Part shown: positions 9,657 to 62,904 of the stretch, in pieces
How the letters are laid out: each line of letters starts with the position of its first letter
How positions within the stretch are numbered: position 1 is the first letter of the stretch
Virus record (IMG/VR): IMGVR_UViG_3300018080_003823
Coordinates: 1,805-65,804 of that record
Length of the DNA stretch: 64,000 nt
Source: a virus
Taxonomy: Duplodnaviria > Caudoviricetes
Direction: 5' to 3' (one strand)
Made by a program: the position numbers and the translations under genes
The notes under the pieces: model-generated
Databases searched by the model: none
What the model saw: only the letters and a program-made list of their open reading frames with translations
Told to the model about the DNA's origin: nothing

Positions 9657-10246
9657 AACTTATTAATGCAAATTTAAGTAGATTGGGACAATCATTCATT
9701 GATGAATTGGATGATGTAGATTGGGGAGAAGATCCCCGTGCTCGCAAACAAGATAGTCCTTATCTCACTAAAGATACAACCCCTCCTATACCTCATGGAC
9801 AGCAAGGAGTAATTGGAGACGAGACTTTTGAAGATTTAGAGCCCGGAAGCGCTGAAGAACAGGGCATAGAACCGTATATGGAACCAGACTTATATCCTGA
9901 AGCCAGAGATGAAATTCCCATTGGAAATGAAATGCTAGGAATTCCAGAAGGGTCTCAGGAAATTGAATATAATGATGGGAAACAATTAGCTTATGATGGT
10001 ATAGATAGCAATGAGGTTATTTCATTCGATTATACTAATCGTTTTGGAATATATGCCGGAACAAGAACTGTGGAACCACATTACACATTTGTTGCTACAG
10101 AAACAGGAAATGAAGTACTAGTCGGGTATGATCGTGACCAAGGAGATATTCGGGCCTTTATAGTAGGAAATATACACCCATTTGGAGTAAGATATGAGAG
10201 TGTCAATTTTACGCCTCGTGGTGAAATAATGAGAGGTATATACTGA
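9650..10246 (+). CDS. acidic N-terminus plus WYL-like domain protein
   Basis: C-terminal ISFDYTN...TRTVEPH...LVGYD..GDIRAFIVGNI resembles WYL. Confidence 0.65.
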   Translation: MLKLINANLSRLGQSFIDELDDVDWGEDPRARKQDSPYLTKDTTPPIPHGQQGVIGDETFEDLEPGSAEEQGIEPYMEPDLYPEARDEIPIGNEMLGIPEGSQEIEYNDGKQLAYDGIDSNEVISFDYTNRFGIYAGTRTVEPHYTFVATETGNEVLVGYDRDQGDIRAFIVGNIHPFGVRYESVNFTPRGEIMRGIY

Positions 10247-11946
10247 TGGACAAAGTAATAACAGATCACTTAGTGAAACTGTCAGATAGCCTCGATAAAG
10301 CCGGGAAAACCCAGTGCTCTAATGCAATAGATGGATTGATTCAAAATAAATCTATCATAAAAATTGCTCAATATGTAGGAGCCATTGGGTATGTCCTTAA
10401 GCAAAATCGAGCTATGTCGAATTGTGTTCGTAAGAAACGAGTTGCTCATTCCGGATCTATGCAAGAAGTTGTACTGGATTGCTTAAAAGAATATCAAGAT
10501 GGACAGGAGTATGGTAATAACGAGTGGACTGCCAAATATGCTAAAGTTATTGAGCAGACTCCAGAATATTTTGATTCTTTGCATGCTGATTTTCTGAAGA
10601 TCATAGCAAGCGAGAATAATATATCTGACCATATAACTAAAGCCAAAGAAGCTAGTAGTATTCTTGTAGATAATGAGGTTGAAGATGATTTATTTAAAGC
10701 ACTTCAAGCAGATTTAAACCAGCTGGATAATTTATTTAAGGAGGGTGACGCAGATCCCCGCCCTTTTAAATTAGCCGCAGCTCCCCGCTCTCAAAGAGGA
10801 TTATGGAGTAGACTCTTCTCTCCAAGTGGGACAGCACGCGGCGTCCAGAAAGACACTGAATTAGAAATGGATAATATACTAGAAGGCATATCATCCATTG
10901 CTATGATGACGCAGCAAATTCGAAATAATATTTCAATGATTCAATATCAAGCAGCATCATTGGGACAATACCCTAACGTTATCTCGGCTGCTCAAAATTT
11001 ATCTTCGAATGATTGGAATAAAAATTTACAAGCCATACAATCGCTCCAATCTGCATTAGGAACTATAACTCAAGATCCTAGTACATTTAGATTACAAGAA
11101 TTAAGTTATAATATTTCTAATAATATGAGCAATATATATAGTCAAGTTGAACGAATTCAGAGAAATATGTTTAACTTAAGACAAAGAGATCCTATAAAAG
11201 GTAGAACTTATGGGCCTTCTACTGCAGAAGAATTTGGTCAATTAGAAATGGCGTTAGAAAAGTTAATTCGTAATCCTTTTGATGATAAAGCACTATTTTA
11301 TGCTCAAAAATTACATGGGCGACTGGAAGATGCTCTTAATATGAGACCAACAGAATTAGGCCCAGAATTCCAAGAATGGATTGAAACTCATCCTGGACAA
11401 TCTCAATTTGAGCCTCAACCTGAATTTGAAACAGAAACCGGGGAAGAAATCCCCGAAGTTGTTAATCAACCTCAATCGCCTTCGGAAGACTTAACAGAAG
11501 ATACTGCCCAACAGTTGACTCGGCTATTAGGACCAGGTTTTACTAATGCACTTGTTGAAGTTTTGGGAGAAATTGCTCGAATGGACTATGGCAGCGCTTC
11601 AGAAGCTCAAAATTTATTAAGTTTAATTCAAGAATTAAATGTATTAAATGCTCCCAATGAAGGAGAAACTAGTCAAGAATCCGAAAATATAACTTTACCG
11701 GAATCTGAAGAGCTGGAATTAGGAGATTCAGGTGGCGTTCCTGAAGAAGTTGTGCCAGAATCACAGGAATATGACGCTGATACGATACTTGACCTAGATG
11801 ACTGGAATAATATTAAAGATCCACGAGAAGCTGCTTCTCGAATGGATACATTAATTAAGATAGCTGATATTGCTGATGTGGTATCACCAAGAATTGCAAA
11901 TATAATTGACGAGTACATTAAATGCTCTAAACTTAGAAAAACCTAG
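10246..11946 (+). CDS. hypothetical, probable inner-head protein
   Basis: 566 aa with an L.K.(A/S)D.LD..G...(A/S)..ID helical motif at both ends and K-x-A sites. Confidence 0.7.
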   Translation: MDKVITDHLVKLSDSLDKAGKTQCSNAIDGLIQNKSIIKIAQYVGAIGYVLKQNRAMSNCVRKKRVAHSGSMQEVVLDCLKEYQDGQEYGNNEWTAKYAKVIEQTPEYFDSLHADFLKIIASENNISDHITKAKEASSILVDNEVEDDLFKALQADLNQLDNLFKEGDADPRPFKLAAAPRSQRGLWSRLFSPSGTARGVQKDTELEMDNILEGISSIAMMTQQIRNNISMIQYQAASLGQYPNVISAAQNLSSNDWNKNLQAIQSLQSALGTITQDPSTFRLQELSYNISNNMSNIYSQVERIQRNMFNLRQRDPIKGRTYGPSTAEEFGQLEMALEKLIRNPFDDKALFYAQKLHGRLEDALNMRPTELGPEFQEWIETHPGQSQFEPQPEFETETGEEIPEVVNQPQSPSEDLTEDTAQQLTRLLGPGFTNALVEVLGEIARMDYGSASEAQNLLSLIQELNVLNAPNEGETSQESENITLPESEELELGDSGGVPEEVVPESQEYDADTILDLDDWNNIKDPREAASRMDTLIKIADIADVVSPRIANIIDEYIKCSKLRKT

Positions 11947-12048
11947 TATGTTGAAAATAAGAGCATAAAAAAGAAGGAAAGATAACTGTGAGCACACAAC
12001 TTGTACTACACAGGATTGTCTGTAGAATATTTAATAGGAGAGGAAACG

Positions 12049-14322: not shown

Positions 14323-16287
14323 ATGTTCAATTTGGAAAAACACAACCAAATACCATCAGAATCCATCGAAGGAGATATAACCGGTGCGTTTGATGACTTA
14401 GAGGGACAATATCAAGGAGAGCCTGTCGAAAGTACATCAGATGAACTTGTTGATACTGTAGATGATGCTCACCAGCAATTATTACTACAACAAGCATCAA
14501 ACGTTCCTATTTGGCAATATTTTTTAGATCTAGAACAAGAACATCCAGAATTAGCCCCTGATATACAAGCAGTAAAAACTCAGTCTGGAATTCAAGCATT
14601 AGAAGACACAATGAATCCGGCAGCTATTAGAGCTTTATATGATCAACTGGAAAAAGCCAATATAGAGGCAACATCTACATTATTGAATGAGACTACTGAT
14701 AACGTATTTTCGAAATCTGCTATTCTCAACGCTGCCAGAAAAGCTCAGAATGACAGAATACGAAATGTACAAACTCCAGAAGGTTTACCTCTTTCTGCTT
14801 TTAATATCAAACAATATAAAAAAGCCCAAATGGGATCATCTAAATTCCCGGTAGTAAATTTAGGAGATTTTATTACTAAATTTGCTGATGATCTTTTATC
14901 TTGGGATGGTGATCCAAGAACACCAGAATCGCAGTTAGCAAAATTAGCTTATGAAGAAATTAGAAATGCAGTAAGTCCAGGATTTGAAGAAGAAGCTAAT
15001 AGTATTTTAGAGACTATTATTGAGTTGGATCCCATTACAGGACACTCGGATGCCGAAAAGAGCCTTATGAAAATTTATGATGTAATGCTAGCTCCAATGG
15101 CAAAGAATGAATCAACTCAAGAAATGTCGTCTCAAATAACTCCAGAAATGGAGACTATGGAGCCCATAATGAGTCAAAATGAACCAAAAGGAATTGTCAT
15201 ACATGATCTAGCAGAACATGTTACAAAAGAATCCTCTAATAACAATATGACCAAAACCGCAGCTGATCAATTTGGTCAGCAATATCTATTGTATGGACCT
15301 ACAGAGAAACGCATTTGTCCTAAGCTGCGTGGGAAAAACCTAAGTGTTGGTGATGTAGTTTCAGAATATACTTGTCGCCATCATTGTCCAAATGGAATCT
15401 GTATAGATGACAATAAAACCATTTGCGGAGAAGCACTTTGGCGAGCAAATGCAATGGACAAATTCTCTCGTGAATATGTAGATGCTGATGGAAATATTCA
15501 AGGTGGTTATTTTAATAAACGATTTGAAATAAATAGAAATGTCCCCGAAGAAAATAAGATGCGTCTAAAGCCAGGCGAAACACGCAAACCACGTCCTGCA
15601 TCCCAGGGTAATTTAGAGTCTAGAATGCAAGATATGCGAAATAAAGAAGGGCAATCTAGAGACTATCGACCTAACTCCGACACTAGCAAACCATTTAATT
15701 GGAGTAAAGATGTTGATCAAAATAATGTTCAACAAAATCAAACAAAACGCGATGCCCGCGAAAAAAATAGCGGACATCAATTAGTCCAATATACTAATAG
15801 AAATGAAGGCGAAAATAATCCCAAAAAATTAGCCTTTAATTTGAAAGCCCAGAAAACAGCTAGATTATCACAGAAACCTAAAGATCTAAAACAAACACAT
15901 AATCCGCATCCAGCTGATACTCATACTATAGAAGTAAATCCATCAGCTGCTCATGCTAGACAACCAGCAGATATAGATCCAAGAAAACAAACTCTAGATC
16001 AAGGTAAACCTATGGCTAAAAAACATTCTTTTAATCTAAAACAAGCAAAAGAATCAAAGACTTGTTACGAAGGAGAATGCTGGGATGTTAATCCATGGGC
16101 GATTTGCAATAAATCAACCGGAGGCAAAAGCAAAGGTAAAGAAAAATTTGAACGTTGTGTACAAGAAGTAAAAAGTAAAAATATGCCCGAGGAAGATTCC
16201 CCGAAAGCTGATAAAGAAGCTCAATTCTCATTAATTGAGTGGACTAAAAATCAATCCGCAGATAGTAATTCTAAAAAAAAAACTTAG
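14323..16287 (+). CDS. hypothetical Cys-cluster protein, probable head-associated; candidate -1 frameshift at the 3' end
   Basis: 654 aa with repeated FN(L/I)K..K.A motifs. Ends in an A10 run followed by TAG. Confidence 0.72.
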   Translation: MFNLEKHNQIPSESIEGDITGAFDDLEGQYQGEPVESTSDELVDTVDDAHQQLLLQQASNVPIWQYFLDLEQEHPELAPDIQAVKTQSGIQALEDTMNPAAIRALYDQLEKANIEATSTLLNETTDNVFSKSAILNAARKAQNDRIRNVQTPEGLPLSAFNIKQYKKAQMGSSKFPVVNLGDFITKFADDLLSWDGDPRTPESQLAKLAYEEIRNAVSPGFEEEANSILETIIELDPITGHSDAEKSLMKIYDVMLAPMAKNESTQEMSSQITPEMETMEPIMSQNEPKGIVIHDLAEHVTKESSNNNMTKTAADQFGQQYLLYGPTEKRICPKLRGKNLSVGDVVSEYTCRHHCPNGICIDDNKTICGEALWRANAMDKFSREYVDADGNIQGGYFNKRFEINRNVPEENKMRLKPGETRKPRPASQGNLESRMQDMRNKEGQSRDYRPNSDTSKPFNWSKDVDQNNVQQNQTKRDAREKNSGHQLVQYTNRNEGENNPKKLAFNLKAQKTARLSQKPKDLKQTHNPHPADTHTIEVNPSAAHARQPADIDPRKQTLDQGKPMAKKHSFNLKQAKESKTCYEGECWDVNPWAICNKSTGGKSKGKEKFERCVQEVKSKNMPEEDSPKADKEAQFSLIEWTKNQSADSNSKKKT

Positions 16288-16538
16288 CGAATAGTTCCTC
16301 TAAGTCTGCTCAAACCTTAAACATCGAAATTAAAGGCAAAAGAATGGGCGTACACCCAAATTTTGCTCATGAATTCCTGGATGCTGAAAGTATGCAAGAA
16401 TTTTTGCAAAACCTACATGATGACGAATGCTGTATAATTGAACAGCACGGAAATGATCTAGAGATTTTACAGGCTCTAAAAAATCGAGCTGATGCAGACG
16501 TGCAGGAAAGTACAAAATCGCTTGTAATGGATGGCTAA
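16281..16538 (+). CDS. probable -1 frameshift extension of 14323 ORF (or small ORF from ATG 16344)
   Basis: The -1 frame is open from the A10 run to TAA at 16538. No clear RBS precedes ATG 16344. Confidence 0.5.
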   Translation, partial: NLANSSSKSAQTLNIEIKGKRMGVHPNFAHEFLDAESMQEFLQNLHDDECCIIEQHGNDLEILQALKNRADADVQESTKSLVMDG

Positions 16539-27125: not shown

Positions 27126-30100
27126 ATGCTCGATAATGACCAGAGACAAGCGTTAATGGAAAAGCTTCGAAATAAGGTTAAAAAAGCCAGTTCGAATATT
27201 TCCACCAAGGTTGAAGCCCAAAAAGGTGATTTCAAAGTTGTCGTAGCATCAGATTCTATTGATTACTTTTATAAGACTAATAAAGTTGGCACAATGAAAG
27301 TCGCTGGCTTTGATGACGAAACAATTGAACTAATCAATGCTGATGCCAACGAAGCAGCTCACGAAATGCTCGAAACATTTGCAAGCACTTTCGACACTCA
27401 AGAATTCACGAAAGAAGCTGCCCAAACTAAAGAAGCAGCTCATGAAACGTTAGATGAACATACTTGGCAGATGACTACTCAAAAGCAATTGGATGAACAG
27501 AAAACTGCCCTGCACCCCAGAAAAGACGAACATATTAACAATATCACTCAAAAACAACTTCCTGAAAATGGAAAACGTCCCGGAACTTACGAAGAAGTAA
27601 CCGAAGCCCAGATGGCTCAAGAAAAAACAACTTTCTATAACGAACCTTTAGATGCATCTCATAGAGTATTAGAAGACCGCAATATTGTCACAGAAGGTCA
27701 ATTGGACGAAGGCGTTGCAACGTACTCCGATGAAGGACAGACAGAACGAGGAGAAATGAGTGCAAAATTTGATGGAGATTTAGCGAAACAGTCACATATG
27801 ATTGGTGAAAAACAATTAGCCGAATTACTGAAACATCACGAATGGACAGAGCCCCTTACAATTACTGAAGGTAAGGATCAGCTGCCCAAACAAGATGGTG
27901 AACTCGGACGAATTACAGCAGAAACTGCAAAGAAAATCGTCACTTCTGCTCTTAATGCATTAGGAAATACAATTATTGCTGCTGGAGTAACTCCTGCAAA
28001 TCTTTCCAACATCGTTAATAAACTTATCTCACATGCTAGTAAATATCCAGTATTAGCAGATACTCTTAATAGATATGCACAGTCAGATGTTACAACTATT
28101 AATGAAAAGGTTGCTAATGCTCAATATTTTGGGTTAGTAACTAATGCTAATCAGAATTTAAGTGATACACTAATTGCTGATATATTAGTTCGGCAGTTAG
28201 CCAAAATTGCAGAAGACCCCAGACACATTGTTAAGGGTCTTATTTCTTTGGCTCAGTCGGAAGATTTTGAAACCAAAATAGATGAAGCCGCAAAACTTAA
28301 TATTACCGAACAAACTAATGATAATGTTAGCTCAGATGAAGATCTCGAAGTTTTTGCTAGCGTTATTAAGGGCGATGACCAGAAGCCAAAAATCGAAGGA
28401 AGCGCCAAAGAAGACGGACTTTATCAATATGCCGGAAAAATAGATGAAGTTAAAGCCGATGTCTCAGATAGAGACGTGTTTGTAAAAGCAGCTTCAGACT
28501 ATGCCAAAGAAGTCATTGCTACTAATGTAGATACAGAATTAAATCTTAATCCACTATCAATCGATGTAAATGAAGAATTAGGTACTTTTAAAATACAAAT
28601 GAAAGATGCTTCGTTTGAATCAGATTCGTTAGAAGCAAGAGCTGAAAAACGCAGAGAACTCGTTAAAGAAGCTCAGTTTGGTGGCGGTGGCGGAATGCCT
28701 CCAGCCGGTGGAGATCAAATGGGTAACCCAATGGCACCTCCTGGAGGAGGAGATATGGGAGCACCACCTCCTGGAGAAGCATTCTCACAAGAACCTCCTC
28801 CTATGGAAGAAATGCCCGACGAAGGAATGGGTGGCGAACCTAAACCTCCTGGAAGTATCTGTAGCGTATGTGGATCAGAAGACGTAGATGTGGATAATGG
28901 AGAATTTAGATGTAATAGTTGTGGAGCCGAAGGTGATATTCATGTTAGATTAGATATCAAGAAATGGCCTGATACTATCCACGAAACCGAACAAGAAGAA
29001 GAGCCAGGATTCGGACTCGGAGCAGAAGACGAACAAGGTATCGGAGGAATGGAAGAGCCAGCTATGGGTGGAGAAGGCGAAGGTACTACAATGCCAAATA
29101 TTCCTATCGCTGCATCCGTAAGAGTAACTCCTCGTTTGTTAGAAAAAGTAGCAGAACAAAAAATCGAAATGGGTTCTGTTTGTCCTAACTGCGGTGGACA
29201 TAATACCGACGTATTCAAGAGCGCAAATACAAAGGGTAAACATGGTATTTGCTGGGATTGCTTGCAAGAATACAACTATCAAGTGAAAGCTAATACCAAA
29301 AAGGCTCATCAAGTTTATGCCCAGTTTACATGGATTCCAAAAACTGCAGAAAAATGTACTACATGCAATAGATTGCGTACCTCTTTTGTTAAGTCTTTGG
29401 AAGATTATGGCATGAAATTCGATGAATTTAATAGTCTTAATAGCATTAAAGAAAAAGCTAATATTATTTTAGCTATGAATAAGGCAGGTACGCTGAATAT
29501 CAAAGAAGCCATGACTGCCCCACTATCTATTAATAAATATGCGGCTACATTTAAGCAGAAATTTGAGAAATTCCCAAGTGCTTCATGCATGGAAAGAATT
29601 GCTCGTAGGTTTGGAGAAAATGCAACCGCCATGGCAGGACCTTGCCAAGGTAAACCTCTCGCAGATTGCGTTTGTGGACAATTAGAGAATTTAGGAATTT
29701 ACACAGACGGACTGGCTGCCAAGGTAGCTCACGTTATGGGTAGCGAAGATCCAATGGTTAATAGCCCAAGTGAAACCTGCGTAAAAATGTTTATTAATGA
29801 TAATTATAACGTCAAAGAAGCATGTACTATCTGTGATGGACTCAGAGCAGCAGCTGCTACCGACGAAGAATTAATGATTGAAGCAATTGCCCAAATGAGC
29901 CCATTCGCTAAACCTGCTCCTAAACCTATGGCAGCCCCCGTAGATCAGATGAAAGCTGCACCTCCAGCTAAGCCAATGGCAGCTCCTGTAGCAGCGCCAG
30001 CTCCTATGGAAGCTCCTGTAGCAGCTCCAGCAGCAGCGCCAGCAGCAGCGCCAGCTCCTATGGAAGCTCCTGTAGCAGCTCCAGCAGCAGCGCCAGCAGC

Positions 30101-32156
30101 AGCGCCAGCTCCTATGGAAGCCGCTCCTATGGAAACCCCAATAGAAGTTACGGATGTCCCAGAGATGGGTGATGGACATATGGACATAGAGATGGATATT
30201 GAAGGAGATACAGGTTTCGAAGATGATATGGGTCTCGAAGAAGATTTTGGAGATACCGGACTAGAAGACGAAGGTGATTTCCAGACTATACTAATCGATG
30301 GATTGCAAGATTTACTAAATGCTCTGCAAGGAGTAATTGGTGAAGATATGATCGATACTACCAACGACTTCGGTGAAACAGATGATATAGGTGAAGAAAT
30401 CTCCGAAGATGCATTAAACGTCAGCGAACCCGAAGCAGAAGAAGATCTCGATGTCGGTGATGTGGCAGATGTTGATGGCATTGAAGAAACTCCCGAAGAA
30501 GAAATTCCCGGAGTTATGGAAGAAGAAGATTTTGGTAAACATGGAGACGAAGACGAAGAACCTATGAGCAGTCCTATGAAGGAAAAACACATGGAAGCTA
30601 AGCCCATGCCCGAGCAAAGATTGCCACATGCTGCAGAAACAGAAGAAACTGAAGTACATACTGCAGAAACAGAAGAAGAAACTCATACTGCAGAAACAAA
30701 TGATGATTCTTCGCTAATGAAACAGGCAAGTACAACTAATGAATTAGATCGATTGCTATACAGAATGAAGAGTGGAACTATTACTAAATCAGCTACCGCT
30801 CTTGATAATCTAATCGATGGATTAGCAGAAAGTACCCCTTCGTTGTTTAAAGAAGCAGCCAAAACCCAGGGTGATGTCAAAACATTGACTCGTAAAGAAG
30901 CGAAAGAAAGTAAACTTGTCACAACTCCCACACAAGATACTGATGGTATCGGGAAATATAAAGATGGCAAACCTATGGGACACGAAGATAAATTTGATGC
31001 CGATAAACCCGATGTACCTCGCAGTGATGCAACCATCGGCGATGAAGGCAAAGAAGTTAAAGTGAATGATAATGATCGACCAACTGTACCTCATGGGTCA
31101 CCATTAATGGATGGCGAAGAACACTATCCCGCAGAAAAAGGCAATGTCGTTGATGGAAATCAAGGCAGTATGCAAACTTCTGCAAGTACTGACTCAACTA
31201 AAAAAGAAGCAAAATGCACAAAATCTTTAGAAGAAAAAGAGGAAGAAGACACAGAAAAGGATAAGTGTGCAGAATCAGAAACTTCTAATAATATGAAAAC
31301 TGCAAAATATACTGTAAAACCCGGAACTAAGCATTATGACGAATTAGCCACTAGGCTTTCTGAGGGAAAAGACCAAGTTAAACTTGCAGATAATAATGAA
31401 TACACAATGAAACAGGATAACGAAAAAATAATCTATCTTACAGAAGTAGATAATATTACGAAAGAATCACAAACTGTTTCTCCTAAGAGCGTAGAGAAGT
31501 TAGAAGATGATCCAGACATTAATCCGAGCAGTGGACCGGGAGCGGGCAAAACTCATGCAGACGAAGCACATAGTCTTGGGGTAGACGAAAAGAAACCGAG
31601 CGAAGGAATGGACGAACCATCTGTACCCGAAGCTCCAGAAGGTGGACAACTTGCCAGAGAACATACTTACGACAATAAGTTGGAAGGACCTTCGGTGCCA
31701 GCAGGTGGAGGCATGGATGAAAATTATGATCAGAACGAAAAGAATACACCCGAGAAATTAGATCAAGTATTAGGAAAAGAAAACGATATAGCCGCAATGG
31801 CTGAAACGAACAAAGAACGAGCTACGAAAATTGCTGGACAAATGTTGAAGACTCAAACAATTTCGATTGACGAACTACCAAATAAAATTGCAGAATTGTC
31901 AAAAGCAAGCTCTGAAATTTTAGATGATTACGAAAATATGCTCAAAGAAGCATCAACCAAAAAAGGATTGCAAAAATCGGCTAATGTAGGCCCTTCGGAA
32001 ACCTCATTCCAGCTGCAATCCTCCTTCAAGCCCGTTGGCGAAGAAGGAAAAGATACTCCTCTGAAAGATTCACTTCAAGGATTATTTAGACTGGATGAGA
32101 GAAATAAAGATTACGAAAAATTCGCAGCTAAAAAAGATAATAAGCTGTGGCATTAA
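27126..32156 (+). CDS. giant scaffold/core-like protein
   Basis: 1676 aa between the protease and decoration/capsid genes. Acidic, Pro/Ala/Gly repeats, several CxxC pairs and many K-x-A sites. Confidence 0.65.
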   Translation: MLDNDQRQALMEKLRNKVKKASSNISTKVEAQKGDFKVVVASDSIDYFYKTNKVGTMKVAGFDDETIELINADANEAAHEMLETFASTFDTQEFTKEAAQTKEAAHETLDEHTWQMTTQKQLDEQKTALHPRKDEHINNITQKQLPENGKRPGTYEEVTEAQMAQEKTTFYNEPLDASHRVLEDRNIVTEGQLDEGVATYSDEGQTERGEMSAKFDGDLAKQSHMIGEKQLAELLKHHEWTEPLTITEGKDQLPKQDGELGRITAETAKKIVTSALNALGNTIIAAGVTPANLSNIVNKLISHASKYPVLADTLNRYAQSDVTTINEKVANAQYFGLVTNANQNLSDTLIADILVRQLAKIAEDPRHIVKGLISLAQSEDFETKIDEAAKLNITEQTNDNVSSDEDLEVFASVIKGDDQKPKIEGSAKEDGLYQYAGKIDEVKADVSDRDVFVKAASDYAKEVIATNVDTELNLNPLSIDVNEELGTFKIQMKDASFESDSLEARAEKRRELVKEAQFGGGGGMPPAGGDQMGNPMAPPGGGDMGAPPPGEAFSQEPPPMEEMPDEGMGGEPKPPGSICSVCGSEDVDVDNGEFRCNSCGAEGDIHVRLDIKKWPDTIHETEQEEEPGFGLGAEDEQGIGGMEEPAMGGEGEGTTMPNIPIAASVRVTPRLLEKVAEQKIEMGSVCPNCGGHNTDVFKSANTKGKHGICWDCLQEYNYQVKANTKKAHQVYAQFTWIPKTAEKCTTCNRLRTSFVKSLEDYGMKFDEFNSLNSIKEKANIILAMNKAGTLNIKEAMTAPLSINKYAATFKQKFEKFPSASCMERIARRFGENATAMAGPCQGKPLADCVCGQLENLGIYTDGLAAKVAHVMGSEDPMVNSPSETCVKMFINDNYNVKEACTICDGLRAAAATDEELMIEAIAQMSPFAKPAPKPMAAPVDQMKAAPPAKPMAAPVAAPAPMEAPVAAPAAAPAAAPAPMEAPVAAPAAAPAAAPAPMEAAPMETPIEVTDVPEMGDGHMDIEMDIEGDTGFEDDMGLEEDFGDTGLEDEGDFQTILIDGLQDLLNALQGVIGEDMIDTTNDFGETDDIGEEISEDALNVSEPEAEEDLDVGDVADVDGIEETPEEEIPGVMEEEDFGKHGDEDEEPMSSPMKEKHMEAKPMPEQRLPHAAETEETEVHTAETEEETHTAETNDDSSLMKQASTTNELDRLLYRMKSGTITKSATALDNLIDGLAESTPSLFKEAAKTQGDVKTLTRKEAKESKLVTTPTQDTDGIGKYKDGKPMGHEDKFDADKPDVPRSDATIGDEGKEVKVNDNDRPTVPHGSPLMDGEEHYPAEKGNVVDGNQGSMQTSASTDSTKKEAKCTKSLEEKEEEDTEKDKCAESETSNNMKTAKYTVKPGTKHYDELATRLSEGKDQVKLADNNEYTMKQDNEKIIYLTEVDNITKESQTVSPKSVEKLEDDPDINPSSGPGAGKTHADEAHSLGVDEKKPSEGMDEPSVPEAPEGGQLAREHTYDNKLEGPSVPAGGGMDENYDQNEKNTPEKLDQVLGKENDIAAMAETNKERATKIAGQMLKTQTISIDELPNKIAELSKASSEILDDYENMLKEASTKKGLQKSANVGPSETSFQLQSSFKPVGEEGKDTPLKDSLQGLFRLDERNKDYEKFAAKKDNKLWH
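30000..30121 (+). repeat. 54-bp tandem repeat (x2 plus partial) encoding APMEAPVAAPAAAPAAAP
   Basis: Identical units start at 30000, 30054 and (partial) 30108. Confidence 0.9.
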
Positions 32157-32181: not shown

Positions 32182-32856
32182 ATGGCTCTTATAGAAGTTT
32201 TTCATGTTGTGGCGAGCCAGTTCCCAATCGATACTAGCAGCGCAACCATCATTCCACAAGGTCGCCTTGTGACTTTGGATGGTAATGGGCAAGTGCAGCT
32301 ATGCCCAGACGCAGATGGCGTAACTGGACCTTATCCTGTAGGAATCGCTGGTGACTCGCATTCAACTGGTACTACTAGTTATACACCGGAATCTGGTGCT
32401 CCACTTAGTAGAGACCCGGTAACTTCGTTGACAGGATCACTAATTGTTGGATCGTATGGTACTTCACAGCGATTTACTCAGAACCGATCTGCTGATAATT
32501 ATGACGAAGTTCTTGCTAGCGGCAAGATGACGGTTTATCATAGTGGTGGAGAATTCTGGACTGACCAGTATGAAGTTACTAACTCGGCGAGTGATGCTAC
32601 TGTATTTACACCTGGATTCACTCTGTGGTCATCTTCGGTTGCTGCTAACATAGGCATGTTCACAGACGAAGAATGTGCAGATGCTACGCAGCTTAATGAT
32701 GCATCACATCGAGCTGGTATTACATTGACTTCTCCAACTGCATATCCAAGTGGTGTACCAGGAACTGGTACAAATGCAGTAGGTTTCTCGGCACTACCAG
32801 AAGGTGGAAACTCGATAGCATGGGGTACGTTCCTGCATGTTAAATTGACTGTCTAA
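32182..32856 (+). CDS. head decoration/capsid-stabilising protein (putative)
   Basis: Immediately upstream of the MCP with an AAGGAG RBS; ASGKMTVY..GGEFWTDQY. Confidence 0.6.
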   Translation: MALIEVFHVVASQFPIDTSSATIIPQGRLVTLDGNGQVQLCPDADGVTGPYPVGIAGDSHSTGTTSYTPESGAPLSRDPVTSLTGSLIVGSYGTSQRFTQNRSADNYDEVLASGKMTVYHSGGEFWTDQYEVTNSASDATVFTPGFTLWSSSVAANIGMFTDEECADATQLNDASHRAGITLTSPTAYPSGVPGTGTNAVGFSALPEGGNSIAWGTFLHVKLTV

Positions 32857-32906
32857 TTTAATTAAGCCAACTTACCTATGGTTTTTGGCTATTAAGGAGA
32901 ATATAA

Positions 32907-33003
32907 ATGATTGATAAGAATAGTCTTACGTCCGAACAAAAAGAGGCTGTGATCGCACAGGCACTCAATACAGACGAAGGTCGAACGGCTTTGGCCCAAG
33001 CGA
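32907..33003 (+). CDS. major capsid protein, exon 1 (not in ORF track)
   Basis: AAGGAG RBS at 32894; encodes MIDKNSLTSEQKEAVIAQALNTDEGRTALAQA+A and joins in frame to exon 2 (97+773 nt = 289 aa + stop). Confidence 0.85.
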
Positions 33004-34172
33004 AGGATTAACACCATCGCCACTGTGTATAATTCACAGTGAAAAAAAATGCTATATGCAGGAAAGTCCTGACACTTTCAACACACTAACAAGGTAACAG
33101 ATGTTGATAGAACGGATAACCCGCAGGAAACCGAGAAAGTTAATATATGCTAAATGTTAAATGGTTGGCTGGTTTTTTTGATGCCGAAGGATCGGTTAGT
33201 TTTAACTATAAACCAAATATTGATTTGGTAAATACATCAGCTGCAACGATGTTTCAAATCAAAGATTTGATGAATAAGTTAAATATCGATTTAAATATGA
33301 ATTTTAGAGAAAAACCCTCAAAAAGCAGCAAAAAACCACGATGGGATATTTTTTTAAGACATGAATATCAAATTATTCCATTTATTAAACATATTGGACC
33401 ATATGTATTTGGGAAGCAATTTCAATTACAAATGATTAAAGATTGGTACAATAAACCTTTTGATGGAATAAAAGAAAAGATACAATTTACTAACCAGGTA
33501 AATAATAAGATTATATCTAATTCAACAAAAGTAATGGAAAAATTAGGTGTCACAAAACTTGAAATATATGATGATATACCAGTATTAACTGATGAAGATT
33601 CATATATAACAACTAACACATTCAATGATATAGAATATTTTGCAGGGCTGTTGGATGGTGAAGGTACTATAAATATTCATTATAGAGCTTCATCAGGGAC
33701 TTCACTAGGAAGATACACTCCACAAATCCTGTTTAATAATACAGATAAGATTATTATAAAATGCTATTGTTCTACTCTAGTAAATAACAATATTCCATAT
33801 CATATATCATTTAGACAAGCTGGTACTACATCAAATCGTAGAAGATGGGATGTTATGGTTTCAGGTGTTAAACGGTGTGAAAGATTGTCCAGCTTGTTAG
33901 TAAACCATTTAGAAACTAAGAGAGAACAATGCAATCTCTTATTACAGTATTGTAAACACCGTTTACTTTCTCCTAAATCTATTAACGAATTAGGAAAAGA
34001 AACTAAAACGGCGTTACAACAAATGAGAAAAGGTATATATTAATTTGGGATCCTCAACGACTATATGCGTTTCATCCTTTCGTAGGATGGTGAGATAGTC
34101 TGAACTGTATGGTAACATGCAGAGACAAGCAGAAATGACTTGTCCCACTCATAAGAGTGAGTAACAAAATTG
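33004..34172 (+). ncRNA. group I self-splicing intron in the major capsid gene
   Basis: P element ATATGCAGGAAA, Q element AACCCGCAGG, R element TCAACGACTA (34054), S element GAGATAGTC (34092), P3 AAATGC/GCGTTT, P8 CATCCT..AGGATG, P9 hairpins and terminal G at 34172. IGS ACCATCGC (33013-33020) is complementary to the ligated exon junction. Confidence 0.9.
33147..34043 (+). CDS. intron-encoded double-motif LAGLIDADG homing endonuclease
   Basis: WLAGFFDAEGS and YFAGLLDGEGT; located between the Q and R elements of the intron. Confidence 0.92.
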   Translation: MLNVKWLAGFFDAEGSVSFNYKPNIDLVNTSAATMFQIKDLMNKLNIDLNMNFREKPSKSSKKPRWDIFLRHEYQIIPFIKHIGPYVFGKQFQLQMIKDWYNKPFDGIKEKIQFTNQVNNKIISNSTKVMEKLGVTKLEIYDDIPVLTDEDSYITTNTFNDIEYFAGLLDGEGTINIHYRASSGTSLGRYTPQILFNNTDKIIIKCYCSTLVNNNIPYHISFRQAGTTSNRRRWDVMVSGVKRCERLSSLLVNHLETKREQCNLLLQYCKHRLLSPKSINELGKETKTALQQMRKGIY

Positions 34173-34945
34173 TGGTAGAACCAATTCGTCGTTCATTGGA
34201 ATATCAGGCAGTTGGTCGTAAACTGCTGTTGGTGGATGAACTTCCACAGGGAGCATTGGCACGCTACGAGAGAGATGTCTCGGCTATTGCTCATATTATA
34301 GCTCGTCGAGGAGCTGTCCCTGATCAGATTCAGGAAGGTGAAGAAATTCTTGTCCCGACTTTCGAAATTGCAGCGAACCCGCAGGTTCGTCTTTCCGAGA
34401 TTAAAGCTCGTCGATTCTATATCGTAGACCGGGCTCAAATCAAGGCTAAAGAAGCCATTCAGAAGGAAGAAGATTCGAATATCTTCAGTGCTCTTATTGC
34501 AGCTGCTGACACACGTAATGATCAGATCGTCACCAACGTCGGTTCATTGTCGCCAGCTTCATTGAATACTGCTTTCCGTTTCATTGAGCAACACGACTTG
34601 GTAGCAACCAAGATTATCGTTCATGCTAATCAGTATGCTTCGATTCGTGTATTCGGTAAGGATTTCTACGATGAAGCAACCACTCGCGAGATTTTGACCA
34701 GTGGTTTGTTTGGTCACGTGTGGACTGCAGACATTCACGTTTCGTCACGAATGGATGCAGATACAGTTATGGTTGTGGCAAGCCCTGACACTGTTGGCGC
34801 TTTCCCGATTCGCCAAGACATCACAGTTCTCCCCGCTGATGATCCTAAGAAATTACGACTCGGCTGGGTCATCTATGAGGAGGTTGGCATCGTTGTCGTA
34901 AACGATTACGCTTTGGCGAAGATTGAGGTAACTAGCGGAACGTAA
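34173..34945 (+). CDS. major capsid protein, exon 2 (HK97-fold, putative)
   Basis: (M)VEPIRRSLEYQAVGRKLLLVDELPQGALARYERD...LGWVIYEEVG. Highly biased codon usage, position in the head module and a strong terminator downstream. Confidence 0.88.
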
Positions 34946-34985
34946 GCCTTTGTGATACAAGGACTTATAGTTTTATAGTTTTACG

Positions 34986-35014
34986 AGAGCAGGCAGAAAT
35001 GCCTGCTCTTTTTT
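34986..35014 (+). terminator. intrinsic terminator after the capsid gene
   Basis: AGAGCAGGCA-GAAA-TGCCTGCTCT followed by a T-run. Confidence 0.9.
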
Positions 35015-35330
35015 GTTTAACCTATTCGTACATTATGTTCTGTTTTCTTTAGTTTGCAGATTTGTATATACATGTTTAAATTTTTGTATATACATTCACT
35101 TGGGCTTATCTGATATTTGTATATACGATTTACAAGACAGCACATTATATTATCTATCATAAGTTTGTGTTTTGTGTAACTGTAATTATATTTTGAACTA
35201 TACTTGCATCTAAACCTCAAAAATGTATATACAAATATTTTTGATTTAGTCGAGAAAATTATTTGACTTATAAATCATTAAATATTAAGTATATACAGGA
35301 TACTCGGAGCAAATTCATGTATAATGAAAC

Positions 35331-35999
35331 ATGAATACTATAGATCAATTTTATTTATTAGGTGCTTATTGGGGTGATGGTCATGTTTATTATATAAAGG
35401 GCAAACATGGAAGTTCATATCAATTTAGCATAGTTTCTGAAGATGAAGATTTTTGTCAATTATGTTCAAATATAGTTTATAATTATATTCATAAACCTGG
35501 AACTGTTAAATTAGTTAATAATTATTATAAATTAATTGTTTGCAGTAAAAATTTATGTGATTCCATTTTGAATCATACTTGTTCTGTAACAAATTATTAT
35601 TCTGCTGATAGATATCAAAAGAAATCGCGATTACCTCACTTCCCTAGTTTAGAACATAAAAAATCATTTATTCGAGGGTTAATGGATTCGGATGGGTGGA
35701 TTTCTAAAAGAAAAAATGGGAAGTACACAAAATACGAAGTGGGTTTTAAAAATAGCTCTGTTTTAAGTTCGGAAATTTACAAATTAATGATAGAGATTGG
35801 ACTATCCTGTGGTCAACTCTCTTTCAGAGAAGGAACCGTCAGTGTGCGTAATGGTAAGAAGTACAATAAAAGTAAAGAACAGTGGTTTTGGACAATTACT
35901 CCGTTGAATTATATTACCACTGTTGGTTTTAGTATAAAACGAAAAAATCTTTTATGTAAAGAGTTTTTAAAAGACCGGAAATATACATCACAGTTTTGA
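35331..35999 (+). CDS. free-standing LAGLIDADG (intein-type) endonuclease
   Basis: YLLGAYWGDGH and FIRGLMDSDGW. Confidence 0.85.
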   Translation: MNTIDQFYLLGAYWGDGHVYYIKGKHGSSYQFSIVSEDEDFCQLCSNIVYNYIHKPGTVKLVNNYYKLIVCSKNLCDSILNHTCSVTNYYSADRYQKKSRLPHFPSLEHKKSFIRGLMDSDGWISKRKNGKYTKYEVGFKNSSVLSSEIYKLMIEIGLSCGQLSFREGTVSVRNGKKYNKSKEQWFWTITPLNYITTVGFSIKRKNLLCKEFLKDRKYTSQF

Positions 36000-36008
36000 A
36001 AGATTAGA

Positions 36009-36552
36009 TACACATGACTACTAGAAAAATATTCAATTTTGAATCTGTAACACTAAACTTTATAAGGAGTATTTGAACATGAGCATGACATGTCCTAATT
36101 GTGGAGTTGTTGATCCACATCAAAAAACTGGAACACCACAACATAATGCACATACTGAAGCTTGTCTAAATGGAGAAATTATCGGTCAATCGGAATATTT
36201 CCGAAATGCTCCACAACAAGATCAAGAAAAAATCGTTAATCTTCTCAATCGTTTAGCTGCGGGTGAGGATGTTGGTTCGGAATATCAACAGCTTTTACTC
36301 AAGATGGACAGTGATTACAAGATAGCCCAAAGAGGTGATCGTACTATTAATTGGTCTCAAGAGATGGATGTGGCTCTTGTTAAGTCTTTTATGGGTGATA
36401 TGCATAATTTTTTTGTGTTTTGTAGAACGTATAACATTTGGACGGATGAAGCATTTGCTCGATATGATTTATTGAAGAAGTCTGAGGATTTTGATAAGTT
36501 AAGTACACATGGCTACTAGAAAAATATTCAATTTTGAATCTGTAATATTAAA
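36009..36552 (+). repeat. 49-bp direct repeat (36009-36057 / 36504-36552) flanking a small ORF
   Basis: tacacatg(a/g)ctactagaaaaatattcaattttgaatctgtaa(c/t)a(c/t)taaa with 3 mismatches. Confidence 0.9.
36079..36519 (+). CDS. hypothetical protein with N-terminal CxxC
   Basis: AAGGAG RBS at 36064; CPNC motif. Confidence 0.6.
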   Translation: MSMTCPNCGVVDPHQKTGTPQHNAHTEACLNGEIIGQSEYFRNAPQQDQEKIVNLLNRLAAGEDVGSEYQQLLLKMDSDYKIAQRGDRTINWSQEMDVALVKSFMGDMHNFFVFCRTYNIWTDEAFARYDLLKKSEDFDKLSTHGY

Positions 36553-39910: not shown

Positions 39911-40234
39911 ATGAGTACTGTTTCGCCGACAGAAGACACATATATAGATACAAATTTACCAAATACTAATTATAGCAACTCTAATGCTTTAAAGATTTGT
40001 TTTGTGGCTTTGAATTCTTCTAGAGCATTGTTTAAGTTTGATATGACCCAAATTGCTAACCCTAGTCAAGCAGCCAGTGTATTTTTTACCGGTTATATAA
40101 ACCATATTTTGGACAGTGATGTTGAATTTGGGTTAATCCAATCTGCCAAACGCAATATCACTGGTACTACTTGGAATAAATGGAATGGAGTAGATGATTG
40201 GAGTTTGGCGCACAGGAGGACACTTAAAACCTGA
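39911..40234 (+). pseudogene. truncated paralogue of 40563-41642 (DNRLRE-like), fused to a mobile-element remnant
   Basis: PTEDTYI..NY..RALFKFD..KRNIT..TWNKWNGVDDW aligns with the downstream gene; similarity stops at ~40201. Confidence 0.7.
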
Positions 40235-40554
40235 TAATACCAGAATACTCAAAATAGTACCTCTTAGATTCCACAGAAGACAATTACACGCTTTACAGTG
40301 TTTTAAAGGTGGAGTAAGAAAGAATTATGGCAGTACTAGGAGTTTGGGGTTTAAGAGAGGTTCGTTGGTTGAGCATAAGAAATACGGATTAAGTTATGTC
40401 GGAGGAAGTAGTAGAGGAAGGTTAAGTTTACATTCTGTATTAAGTGGAGTACGTTTGGCTCAGAATGTAAAGGTAGAGGAATGTTCATTTAGGAGTTATT
40501 CGAGTGTTCGTTTTTCCTCTACAGGGGCTAAAGCCCCATAGTTTCTAAAACGAA
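40202..40554 (+). mobile_element. 3' remnant of an IS200/IS605-family IsrB/IscB (RRXRR) element with terminal hairpin
   Basis: GGH..PDNT..HRRQLH..KGG.RK.YG.T.SLGFKRGSLV.H.KYG..YVGG..RLSLH. Hairpin GGGGCT-AA-AGCCCC at 40524-40537 is nested in TTCGTTTT/AAAACGAA. Confidence 0.7.
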
Positions 40555-40562
40555 AGAAAATT

Positions 40563-41642
40563 ATGAGTTCTAATATAAATCCAATAGAAGATACGTATTT
40601 ATCGGACGTGTCCCCAACAACTAATTATAGTTCCTCTGATAGGTTGTATTTAGTTAGCGCTGCTCCTGGTGCGGTATACAATGTTTTGATGCGTTTTGAT
40701 GCATCTAGTGTAATTGCTTTGACAAATATTACTGAGGTTACATTACATTGTACAGTAGAAGAATCACATGTCCAAATTCCTGGCACAGATATCCTCATTT
40801 ATGCAGGTTTAGTTCCATATAACAAACGAAATATCACAGATTCTACATGGAATAAATGGAATGGAGTAGATGACTGGGCTACTGCAGGAGGGGATGTTGA
40901 TGATGGATTAGGTTTAGTTACCATAAGCACTATTTCAGCAGAAGATCAAACCACTTTGTCTGGTGACGTAACCTCATTGTATGAATATGCTCGTGATACT
41001 TTAGATGTAACTGATTGGTTTACTATTGTAATCAAAACAGGCTGTATCCTAGGATCTACATATACTTATCTTTATAGCTCTGAATATGCTACGGCATCAT
41101 ATCGTCCGTATCTTACTTTTACTTATTCTTCTGCATCTACTACTCAGTCTGAACCTGCAGTAACTATTTCTCAATCTTTTGCTACCAGCTCAACAGTAAG
41201 TGCAGAGCGCAGTCAAGTCACATCTATAATAGTTCCTTCTGTGTCTAATCATACGGATACTCAATATCAGATATTTGATTATGTAGTATCAACTAATGAT
41301 ACTCCATTAATAGATGTTCGATCTAGCAACACAGAATTATTGACCAATGGTAACATATCAGAATTATCTCTTATTGAACTAGGTATTATTTTAAAGATGA
41401 ATCATTTATATAAAATACGGTTTAGAACTAAAAGTGGATCATCGTGGTCTTCATGGTCTTCTTTAACCACATTTCGAACTAGGGACTTAGATTACAAGTA
41501 TAAGCGCGGTCATCGTAACAGCGAAGTAGTTCAATTGACTACAGAAACAGCTACAAACCGAGGGGCTACTATAGTTAATAACGGTTCAGCGGTGACTAAT
41601 ACTAGTACATCTCGTGGGGCAACTATCGTAAATCCTGATTGA
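40563..41642 (+). CDS. DNRLRE/FN3-like domain protein, probable virion surface protein
   Basis: EDTYL..PTTNY..LMRFD..SSEY..RPYLTFTY followed by an FN3-like segment (YKIRFRT..WSSWS). Confidence 0.65.
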   Translation: MSSNINPIEDTYLSDVSPTTNYSSSDRLYLVSAAPGAVYNVLMRFDASSVIALTNITEVTLHCTVEESHVQIPGTDILIYAGLVPYNKRNITDSTWNKWNGVDDWATAGGDVDDGLGLVTISTISAEDQTTLSGDVTSLYEYARDTLDVTDWFTIVIKTGCILGSTYTYLYSSEYATASYRPYLTFTYSSASTTQSEPAVTISQSFATSSTVSAERSQVTSIIVPSVSNHTDTQYQIFDYVVSTNDTPLIDVRSSNTELLTNGNISELSLIELGIILKMNHLYKIRFRTKSGSSWSSWSSLTTFRTRDLDYKYKRGHRNSEVVQLTTETATNRGATIVNNGSAVTNTSTSRGATIVNPD

Positions 41643-53770: not shown

Positions 53771-53844
53771 GCGTCAGTAGCTCAATTAGGCAGAGCAGTT
53801 CTCTCTAATAGAACTGGTTCCAGGTTCAAGTCCTGGTTGACGCA
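53771..53844 (+). tRNA. amber-suppressor tRNA (anticodon CUA), CCA not encoded
   Basis: Acceptor GCGTCAG/TTGACGC+A73, D arm GCTC/GAGC, anticodon stem GTTCT/AGAAC with loop CT-CTA-AT (anticodon 53805-53807), T arm CCAGG-TTCAAGT-CCTGG. Confidence 0.93.
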
Positions 53845-58163: not shown

Positions 58164-60251
58164 ATGCGATTTCATATACCAGGATTGCCTCATACAGTAA
58201 CCAACAAAAAGTTTTGTCATTGCGCGTTTACTCAAAAAGTTTATAAATTATGTGATATGCTTCATTCTTTAGGGCATGATATTATTCACTATGGATGTGA
58301 AGGTAGTGATCCGGTATGCACTGAACATATTGATGTTATCACCGATGATTTTCGTAAACAATATTATCCAGATGAATGGCATGATAAACAATGGGACTAT
58401 GATGTTAAAGATGAATGCCATAAACAATATTTCAATAAAACTATTACTGAGATAAAGAAAAGAAGAACAGATGACGATTTTCTTCTGTGTAGTTGGGGAT
58501 GGGGGCACCAACCGATAGCTTCTGCTCTAAGTGATTCTATAATGGTTGTGGAACCCGGAATTGGGTACAAAGACACTTTTTGTAGTTTTAGAGTTTTCGA
58601 ATCATATAATTGGATGTCTCATGTCTATGGTCAAGGTCAAATGGATTCTAAAACAGGCAAACGAGTAGCCCAGGAAAATGGGCGTTTTTTTGATGCTGTA
58701 ATTCCCAATTACTTTGATCCTGATGATTTCGATTATACCCCTAATGACAAAGAAGATTATTTCTTGTTTTTAGGGCGTATTGTTAAGCGAAAAGGAATAC
58801 ATGTAGCTGTTGATGTTATGACTCGAATTGGTGGGCATCTTAAAGTGGCAGGTCAAGGTCAATTTAACAAAATGCCTTCACGGTGTGGAGAAATTATAGA
58901 ACATATAGGATTTGTAAATGTAGAGCAACGAAGACAATTGTTAGCTAAAGCCAAAGCTGTTATTATGCCTACGCTTTATATAGAACCATTTGGAGGCGTT
59001 GCGGTTGAAGCCATGATGAGTGGAACTCCAGTCATATCAACAGATTGGGGAGTATTTCCGGAAACTGTCTTGCATGGGCTTACAGGTTATCGATGTAGGA
59101 CACTAGAGCAATTTGAATGGGCATGCCGTAATATAGAAAATATATCTCCGGAAACTTGCAGAACATGGGCTATGAATAATTTTGCCATGGATCGTGTGGC
59201 TAAAATGTATCAGGAATATTTTGAATTCCTTTCTTATACCAAAGAAAAAGCAGGTTGGTATAAGATGAATCGTCAGCGTAGTGAAATGAGCTGGCTAGAC
59301 AAGCAATATCCACAAGCATCTCCAAAGTCTGAGTCTCTACACACAGAACCGGTTTTATCAGAAACCAGAAATATTCTTCCGTTAGAAAATGAGCCTGATT
59401 ACGAATTAGATCTTAGTTGGTATGACAAGCAAAGAAAACCTGGTATATCATTCTTAATGAGAGCAAAAAATGAAGAGAGAACTATTGGAATGGCTCTAGA
59501 TTCTTTGAGTCAATTAACAATTCCATATGAAATAAATTTAGTTCTTAATAATTGCGAAGACAAAACCCGTGATATTGTACAGGACAGAATAGATAAAGGT
59601 TATCCGATTAATTTATATGATTATCCATTTCAATTAGGCAAAACCGGCATTGAGAATCAATGCACTCCTGTAAATAGTGTGCATTCTACTATCTGGTTGT
59701 TAAATTGGATGCTTTTAAAAGCTAATTATGAATATACTTTTAGATGGGATTCGGACTTCATGATGACTTCTGCTTTGGCAGAAGAAATCGAAGAGAAAGT
59801 TATTCAAGATTCTGAAGCAGATATTTTCAATATTTCGGCAATATTCTCGGATTCAGGCAAAGCCAATAAAGAGCCATATCTCTGGTCTAATTCCCTAAAA
59901 CCTCGTTATTGCCGTTATTCACTATGGCATTTGACGAAATTCGGAGTCCAAGGACCACGAATATCTTCGCTAGATGGTGCAATAATTCACGATAGCCCGT
60001 TATCTCATGTGAAGAGCTATTGGGATACTGATCCATGGTGGGAATCTGAGCACAGAGAAGAAACAGAAGAAATGATTCAAATGTGCAAGGAAAAGTATGC
60101 AAAATTAATAGAAGTAGCAGGTGATTCTAGTCCTCGCGGTAGAGCATCGTGTCCTGAATCAGAAGAATTAGCCAAAAAAATTCAAAAAGCTTTAGGAGGT
60201 GTTGATGTCGAAGAAATCATTCCCCTTAAGGAACATACATTAATGATTTGA
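58164..60251 (+). CDS. glycosyltransferase fusion (GT4-like N-terminal plus GT2-like C-terminal)
   Basis: [36 protein letters not shown]; then [16 protein letters not shown]. Confidence 0.85.
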
Positions 60252-60294
60252 GTTTAAAAAGAGGAAAAAGGGAGTCGAATCTCACATTATTTGT

Positions 60295-62895: not shown

Positions 62896-62904
62896 GATTA
62901 ATTC

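Follow-up and report, generated by a model that had tools for sequence, protein, structure and literature searches.

The major capsid gene in the 64,000-nucleotide stretch of viral DNA analysed here (the window; positions 1,805 to 65,804 of the IMG/VR record IMGVR_UViG_3300018080_003823) is interrupted by a group I intron whose 5' splice site appears to do without the U.G wobble pair that normally marks it. The mRNA is probably joined between A33003 and U34173 (positions are those of the window), as indicated by comparison with uninterrupted relatives, and the 5' exon would then end in an A held in a Watson-Crick A-U pair. The same intron occurs at the same site in five lineages with diverged exons, and the evidence from the sequences supports a new family of capsid-gene group I introns with an A, paired with U, as the last base of the 5' exon and without any U.G in P1.

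The splice junction of the capsid gene

The source of the window is a phage-G-like jumbo phage, and the region in question holds the block of head genes in this relative of Bacillus phage G. Along 98% of its length, the frame at 34175-34942 shares 54.8% identity with gp27, the annotated major head protein of phage G, and it matches PHROG 2522 (major head protein) with E = 1.5e-59. This full-length similarity to a capsid protein agrees with the identity given to the gene in a preliminary description of this DNA. Upstream, a short frame starting at ATG 32907 encodes MIDKNSLTSEQKEAVIAQALNTDEGRTALAQA, continues with KD, and then meets a stop codon; its exon 1 part aligns with the N-terminus of gp27 (...EEGRVALAQAMANPIR). 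The features around the junction are:

32894-32899, + strand: ribosome-binding site AAGGAG, upstream of the exon 1 ATG 32907
32907..33003, + strand: exon 1 of the major capsid protein, encoding MIDKNSL...ALAQA and supplying the A of the Met codon; homologous to the gp27 N-terminus and to 77 intronless loci
33000..33003, + strand: 5' strand of P1, exon GCGA, with the 5' splice site between A33003 and A33004; invariant in five of five lineages
33004..34172, + strand: group I intron, 1169 nucleotides, omega-G at 34172; delimited against intronless alleles, and supported by a partial RF00028 match and by covariation
33009-33011, + strand: in-frame stop TAA, inside the P1 loop
33013..33020, + strand: internal guide sequence ACCATCGC, in which ACCA (33013-33016) forms P10 with UGGU of the 3' exon and UCGC (33017-33020) forms P1 with GCGA
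33021..33041, + strand: P2 hairpin CACUGUG/CACAGUG, adjoining P1 with zero joining nucleotides; every copy has a hairpin at this place, but of wholly different sequence
34173-34176, + strand: exon strand of P10, UGGU, at the start of exon 2
34173..34945, + strand: exon 2 of the major capsid protein, supplying TG of the Met codon and then VEPIRRSLEYQ...; similar to gp27 and PHROG 2522

The preliminary description had proposed that 33003 is joined to 34173 and that the guide, 33013-33020, is exactly reverse-complementary to the two joined exon ends. Direct reading of the positions agrees with both statements, with GCGA at 33000-33003, G at 34172 and TGGT at 34173-34176. The joined sequence, GCG A|TG GTA GAA, encodes AQA-M-VEPIRR in frame, the Met codon being split and the intron ending in G. 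The last base of the 5' exon, A33003, pairs with U33017, and is followed by an A33004.A33016 mismatch and by the pairs G33005-C33015 and G33006-C33014. The U.G pair usual at the 5' splice site of group I introns is absent here, A33003-U33017 being a Watson-Crick pair with the purine on the exon strand. An exact 8-mer complement of a fixed junction within the first ~25 positions of the intron would be expected by chance about 25 x 4^-8 = 4e-4 times. The 50 nucleotides 32996-33045 fold into exactly P1 plus the 7-bp P2 (-16.3 kcal/mol, z = -4.94, none of 200 shuffles being as good), and RNAfold returns the same P1-P2 layout in six of six copies, where the A-U is the last pair before an unpaired A.

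The junction itself is fixed by relatives that carry no intron. A scan of IMG/VR with the exon-2 protein gave 80 loci, 77 of which have no interruption here and encode A[Q/E]AMVEPIRR (76 with Q, one with E), in line with the AQAMVEP expected beforehand for intronless homologues; of the other three, L008 and L065 carry the intron and L084 is truncated. Among more distant relatives, with equal spacing, this position is M in phage G (gp27 reading ALAQAMANPIR), M in an uncultured phage and L in Tunturi_5. Measured against the intronless alleles, the inserted DNA is exactly 33004-34172. The insertion is delimited unambiguously, and its boundaries cannot slide because the A after the 5' junction differs from the T of the 3' exon, and the terminal G differs from the exon A. 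Only A33003|U34173 gives the product of the relatives, and the uninterrupted loci therefore fix the junction. The competing products named in the preliminary description, AQAKD.. and AQAKVEP, are excluded by the same 77 of 80 loci, unless this allele makes a deviant protein.

Such a slightly deviant capsid protein, AQAKD(L)VEP or AQAKVEP, would result from a cut after a canonical U (U33008 or U33009) or after G33005. The two U residues do lie a few nucleotides downstream of A33003, either G34172 or G34174 could serve as the terminal G, and the frames can hold; in one copy alone, L122, it is possible to draw a GGU/GCC helix that includes a U.G. However, there is no G upstream of P2 with which these U residues could pair in the window, in L065 or in L124, and a scan of six copies for an alternative P1 (a U.G next to three or more pairs, upstream of P3) revealed none whose position is conserved. 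The extra residues would also differ between copies, two in the window (GCGAAGGATT) versus one in L065 (GCGAAAT), whereas the uninterrupted homologues, 77 of 77, have exactly one residue here, Met, and the guide is the exact complement of the A|U junction. A cut at any of these downstream positions is accordingly very hard to credit.

A guide located downstream of P2 was also considered (GUCCU 33066-33070 with AGGAU 33004-33008) and rejected: GUCCU belongs to P5, which the T4 nrdB core also has, it would leave the intron without a P10, and it is not conserved as a pairing partner.

Further copies were sought by pattern scans of metagenome and viral contigs with the 3' core or a P3-P4 stretch. 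The same intron was found at the same site, with both ends, in the window, in L065 (together with L119, which is the same contig, and L121, a near-identical variant), in L118, in L122 and in L124; in L008, L120 and L123 the contigs end inside the intron, and only its 3' part is present. All five lineages with a 5' end share the order of exon GCGA, a following A, a short loop with an in-frame TAA, the guide, and P2 directly behind it. The guide reads ACCA, ACCG or ACUA and then UCGC, and P10 is kept throughout, the variants pairing through wobble pairs. The position after the cut is an A opposite A or G, and the P1 stem, counted from the linker-free P1/P2 junction, has four pairs (five in L118). 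At the other end, nine of nine copies (eight aligned plus L124) have a terminal G with TGGT directly behind it. For the Ala that precedes the site all five carriers use the codon GCG, while among the 77 intronless loci GCG occurs in 4, GCA in 42, GCT in 24 and GCC in 7; the GCG of the carriers fits P1, which needs that G.

Among the named phages no near-identical DNA was found, and the 5' half of the intron gave no match in distant mode either. The pattern GCTATATGCAGGAAA..TGA had 31 matches in viral contigs, all of them due to chance and, on inspection, none from this intron family, and the 3'-core pattern had 0 matches in genome contigs.

A different and unrelated group I-like intron is present in the same gene in the related capsid loci L036 (1895-3001) and L076 (1950-3001), about 60 nucleotides downstream, at LLLVD|ELPQGAL. 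It served as a control of the method and has a canonical site, the exon GGTGGAT| facing GTCCACC with a U.G pair, and a terminal G.

The ribozyme, its endonuclease and the surrounding genes

The remainder of the intron consists of a group I core divided by a long open reading frame (ORF). The features are:

33047..33125, + strand: 5' core (tentative helix limits), first part: P3 5' strand 33047-33052, J3/4 33053-33056, P4 33057-33062, J4/5 33063-33065
33047..33125, + strand: 5' core (tentative helix limits), second part: P5 with extension 33066-33117, J5/4 33118-33119, P4' 33120-33125
33126..33135, + strand: P6 5' strand, with partner 34044-34053 and the endonuclease ORF in the P6 loop
33147..34043, + strand: LAGLIDADG homing endonuclease ORF, 298 amino acids, motifs LAGFFDAEGS and FAGLLDGEGT; in the P6 loop
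34044-34072, + strand: 3' core, P6' 34044-34054, J6/7 34055-34058, P7 34059-34064, P3' 34067-34072; from the Rfam alignment and pair counts
34073-34100, + strand: 3' core, P8 34073-34089, J8/7 34090-34094, P7' 34095-34100; from the Rfam alignment and similarity to T4 nrdB and Twort
34105-34159, + strand: 3' core, P9 34105-34122 (GUAA loop), P9.1 34124-34144, P9.2 34146-34159; from the alignment of copies
34160-34172, + strand: invariant tail AGUAACAA..G, the intron's 3' end

The core helices P3 to P9 stand in canonical order and covary, the guide pairs in both P1 and P10, and the terminal nucleotide is G34172. In an alignment of the 3' half of eight copies, P7, P8, P9 and P9.1 are paired in 98.5% of cells, and both sides have changed in 10 of the 25 pairs. 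When the partner was slid by 1-3 columns as a control, only 33-48% of cells could pair, and the covariation score observed for these four helices was reached by 0 of 500 shuffles. P3 occurs as AAAUGC/GCGUUU, AAUUGC/GCGAUU and AAACGC/GCGUUU, and P6, with the ORF in its loop, as AGGA..CCGAG/UUUGG..UCCU, AGAA..CCAAA/UUUGG..UUCU and AGGA..CUGAUA/UAUCAG..UCCU. P2 and P9.2 are hairpins at fixed places whose sequences are unrelated among copies, and their changes are compensatory, as are those in P3 and P6. Because of the compensatory changes in P2, P3, P6, P7, P8, P9 and P9.1, the ribozyme is considered to be intact and under selection for its fold. P4 (UGCAGG/CCCGCA) holds a conserved A.C mismatch, and its limits are tentative; the stretch GGAAAGUCCU, spanning P4, J4/5 and P5, is common to the T4 nrdB intron.

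Comparison with group I models, the check that had been suggested at the outset, succeeded in part. The Rfam model RF00028 (Intron_gpI), run on the region alone, gave a match of 31.8 bits (E = 6.3e-6) at 33942-34122 only, and the Rfam scan at gathering thresholds had no match at the intron. Within 34040-34122 the match takes in the R and S elements as well as P8 and P9, whereas the 5' half of the model is forced onto ORF sequence. The score is low because the 897-nucleotide ORF in P6 splits the ribozyme core, and the assignment to group I is supported by this match and, much more strongly, by the covariation among copies.

Two single-stranded segments, the P9.1 loop CAGAAAUGA (34130-34138) and the tail AGUAACAA (34160-34167), are invariant in eight of eight aligned copies, amid helices that vary freely. 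Both are probably engaged in tertiary contacts, of a P9.0-like or a loop-receptor kind.

The intron is regarded as a mobile element with a predicted homing endonuclease. Its ORF scores 30.1 bits with Pfam LAGLIDADG_3 (PF14528), against a cut-off of 22.5, and has two motifs, as a monomeric enzyme of this kind would. An intact LAGLIDADG ORF is present in eight of eight copies examined, and in L124 the start of the ORF was observed. The protein, used as a query, had zero relatives in viral contigs and 0 matches to solved structures. In L118, L120, L122 and L124, the AUG of the ORF lies inside the ribozyme core (AUGGAYAACCCGCAGGAAAC, spanning P5', J5/4, P4' and P6), so that in these four copies protein coding would overlap catalytic RNA. 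In the window (33112-33146), the core AUG is replaced by ACG, and the ORF begins 34 nucleotides later, at 33147.

A second LAGLIDADG-like ORF of 222 amino acids (35331-35999; LAGLIDADG_3 at 26.4 bits, PHROG 4645 endonuclease) is situated downstream of both the capsid gene and a terminator-like hairpin, carrying a U run, that falls within 34938-35020. The possibility that it marks another intron was rejected, there being no group I match in 34900-36300, and it looks free-standing.

Upstream of the capsid gene, 27126-32156 encodes a very acidic protein of 1676 amino acids that contains several CxxC pairs and repeats rich in Pro and Ala. Next to it, at 32182-32856, comes an ORF of 224 amino acids that occupies the position of phage G gp26 (capsid decoration) and has no Pfam or PHROG match. 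Further downstream, at 53771-53844, there is a tRNA with the anticodon CUA (62.5 bits in Rfam; labelled tRNA-Pyl by ARAGORN), a potential amber suppressor. By a crude count, TAG ends 8 of the 46 long frames on the + strand, and its readthrough would merge a few long frames, such as 10225-11985, 14323-16320, 40137-41642 and 60247-62901. The capsid exons and the intron ORF are unaffected by a possible recoding of TAG.

How the 5' splice site may be recognised

Splicing is inferred to occur by the standard guanosine-initiated pathway, most likely with the usual two transesterifications removing the intron from late mRNA. In the first step, guanosine would attack the A33003-A33004 bond, held in a 4-bp P1 (GCGA/UCGC) that is stacked directly on P2. 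In the second, G34172 would occupy the G site while P10 (UGGU/ACCA) aligns the 3' exon, and the exons would be joined as ...AQA-M-VEPIRR. The in-frame TAA in the P1 loop of every copy may stop ribosomes at the entrance of the intron, as in other phage introns.

In ordinary group I introns J4/5 and J5/4 reportedly read the wobble pair from its minor-groove side, in work attributed to Strobel and Cech in 1995 and to Knitt et al. in 1994. The junction proposed here points to a variant mode of recognition without that pair, as the preliminary description had also suggested, and the best guess is recognition by position and by the end of the helix. The site would be defined by helix geometry, the A-U being the last pair of a fixed stem of 4-5 bp measured from the P1/P2 junction, and the break in the helix directly after the cut, with an unpaired A opposite a purine, would mark it. 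An intron-encoded protein or a host factor may help. That the RNA alone cleaves after the A of a Watson-Crick A-U pair ending a 4-bp P1, with the site set by helix geometry and no G.U wobble, has a chance that we would place slightly below even.

Several points weigh against splicing after A33003 as proposed here. P1 has only 4-5 bp and is invariant among copies, and hence shows no covariation of its own; the changes in P10 are one-sided transitions, always pairing opposite U or G; and the GCG codon of the carriers was possibly brought along by co-conversion during homing, not selected for P1. The RF00028 match misses the gathering score of 50 and is confined to the 3' half. The adenosines of J4/5 and J5/4 are ordinary and A-rich, and the core shows no visible cause of a change in recognition. 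In engineered Anabaena introns a pyrimidine is needed at -1, a purine being disfavoured, and a reversed G-U abolished the reaction (PMC12355055; this and the papers below are cited from parts of their text); a purine at -1 would therefore be expected to make a poor substrate for a standard core. Finally, G34172 and the following UG form, by necessity, a GUG codon in frame with VEPIRR in every copy.

This GUG (34172-34174) would matter if the intron were spliced rarely or not at all. The capsid protein could then be made in two pieces, a 32-residue peptide from exon 1 and a body starting at the GUG, or the allele could be defective and rely on a second copy or on co-infection. In the window a GAG-containing stretch lies about 10 nucleotides upstream of the GUG, and the 65.8-kb IMG/VR record, of which the window is the greater part, is itself a fragment with an estimated completeness of 39%, so that a second capsid gene could lie elsewhere. 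However, L065 and L118 lack the Shine-Dalgarno-like stretch, the record as it stands contains one capsid gene, and the compensatory changes in the ribozyme across lineages would be purposeless without splicing. Exon 1, moreover, always ends in such a way that the spliced frame is restored. Between the window and L118 its 28 codons show 13 synonymous and 4 non-synonymous differences, and because its changes are mostly synonymous, exon 1 appears to be still read as protein; it is taken to be translated and under purifying selection, the divergence among carriers being mainly synonymous. Both forms of this explanation, counted together, are improbable.

The RNA may also be incompetent on its own and yet use the same junction after A33003, the missing wobble contact being made good by the intron's own LAGLIDADG protein, in the role of a maturase, or by a factor from the host or the phage. 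LAGLIDADG maturases are known in fungal mitochondria. Every copy retains an intact LAGLIDADG ORF, which in several copies starts inside the ribozyme core, and the poor reaction of purines at -1 in engineered introns would be in keeping with such help. On the other hand, nothing ties this protein to RNA binding, with 0 relatives among solved structures, homing explains the retention of the ORF equally well, and the core has all the usual helices. Dependence on a protein is considered rather unlikely.

Known introns and the meaning of an A-U splice site

The core of the intron appears to be most like those of the T4 nrdB and Twort introns, which we take to belong to subgroup IA2. Over 38-45 nucleotides, the segment P8-J8/7-P7'-P9 is 84-90% identical to the corresponding part of these introns, and GGAAAGUCCU is shared with T4 nrdB. 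Introns of the T4 nrdB/Twort type likewise have a GUAA loop in P9, interrupt a phage gene that is essential, meet an in-frame stop shortly downstream of the 5' splice site and carry an endonuclease ORF in a peripheral loop. Unlike T4 nrdB, however, the present intron lacks P7.1/P7.2, having 8 nucleotides between P3' and P8 versus ~37, and unlike the type as a whole, its endonuclease belongs to the LAGLIDADG family and its exon ends in an A-U pair instead of U.G.

A natural group I intron in which C replaces U at -1 is said to have been described by Hur and Waring in 1995. As far as its title tells, it resembles the present case in that a Watson-Crick pair replaces the wobble, and differs in that the exon base is a pyrimidine and the G of the guide is retained.

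The nearest precedent is provided by the group B IStrons, which include BcISt1 of Bacillus cereus and the CboIStrons of Clostridium botulinum. In these introns the 5' exon ends in G, and the U-G is shifted by one base into the intron; the exon end other than U was deduced from uninterrupted homologues and confirmed by reverse transcription-polymerase chain reaction, and the critical pair lies beside an internal loop, not within an unbroken helix (PMC4227781). Splicing of the C. botulinum IStron has been shown in E. coli, its target motif ends in G (TGGG), and its intron is assigned, as IStron introns are, to subgroup IA2 (10.1101/2023.11.20.567912). Both the group B IStrons and the present family are natural bacterial or phage group I introns with a 5' exon that does not end in U, deduced in each case by comparison. 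The present intron is nevertheless not a group B IStron: those elements carry IS607/IS605 transposase genes and insert after GG, whereas here there is only a LAGLIDADG ORF, the exon is GCGA and no U.G is found.

Group I introns in phage capsid genes are already known (e.g. PMC3706429). The capsid intron of the Cluster J mycobacteriophage LittleE likewise belongs to group I, carries an ORF of the LAGLIDADG type, interrupts the major capsid gene and is spliced out late in infection (PMC3706429), but its exon 1 ends in U and its sequence is unrelated to that of the present intron.

The U.G wobble at the 5' splice site has been called 'critical and highly conserved' (PMC4227781) and 'completely conserved', and a database of 42,459 introns published in 2025 required U and rejected 16,427 candidates (PMC11835236). 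A full-text literature search, which reached few subscription journals and no supplements, yielded no report of A at -1 in a natural group I intron; the published natural exceptions found are only C, or G in the group B IStrons with their shifted U-G.

If the RNA proves to cleave after A unaided, a 5' exon ending in U would not be a chemical necessity of the group I fold, a matter that bears on how the ribozyme core reads its substrate helix. Databases that discard candidates without U would then hide further introns of this kind, unknown in number, and boundaries would be misannotated. The finding also bears on the design of trans-splicing and RNA-circularising ribozymes, now limited to targets ending in U or in a pyrimidine (PMC12355055). 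A family with an A-U splice site in an essential, highly expressed gene, maintained across diverged lineages, would show that group I introns can use a second mark for the site of cleavage.

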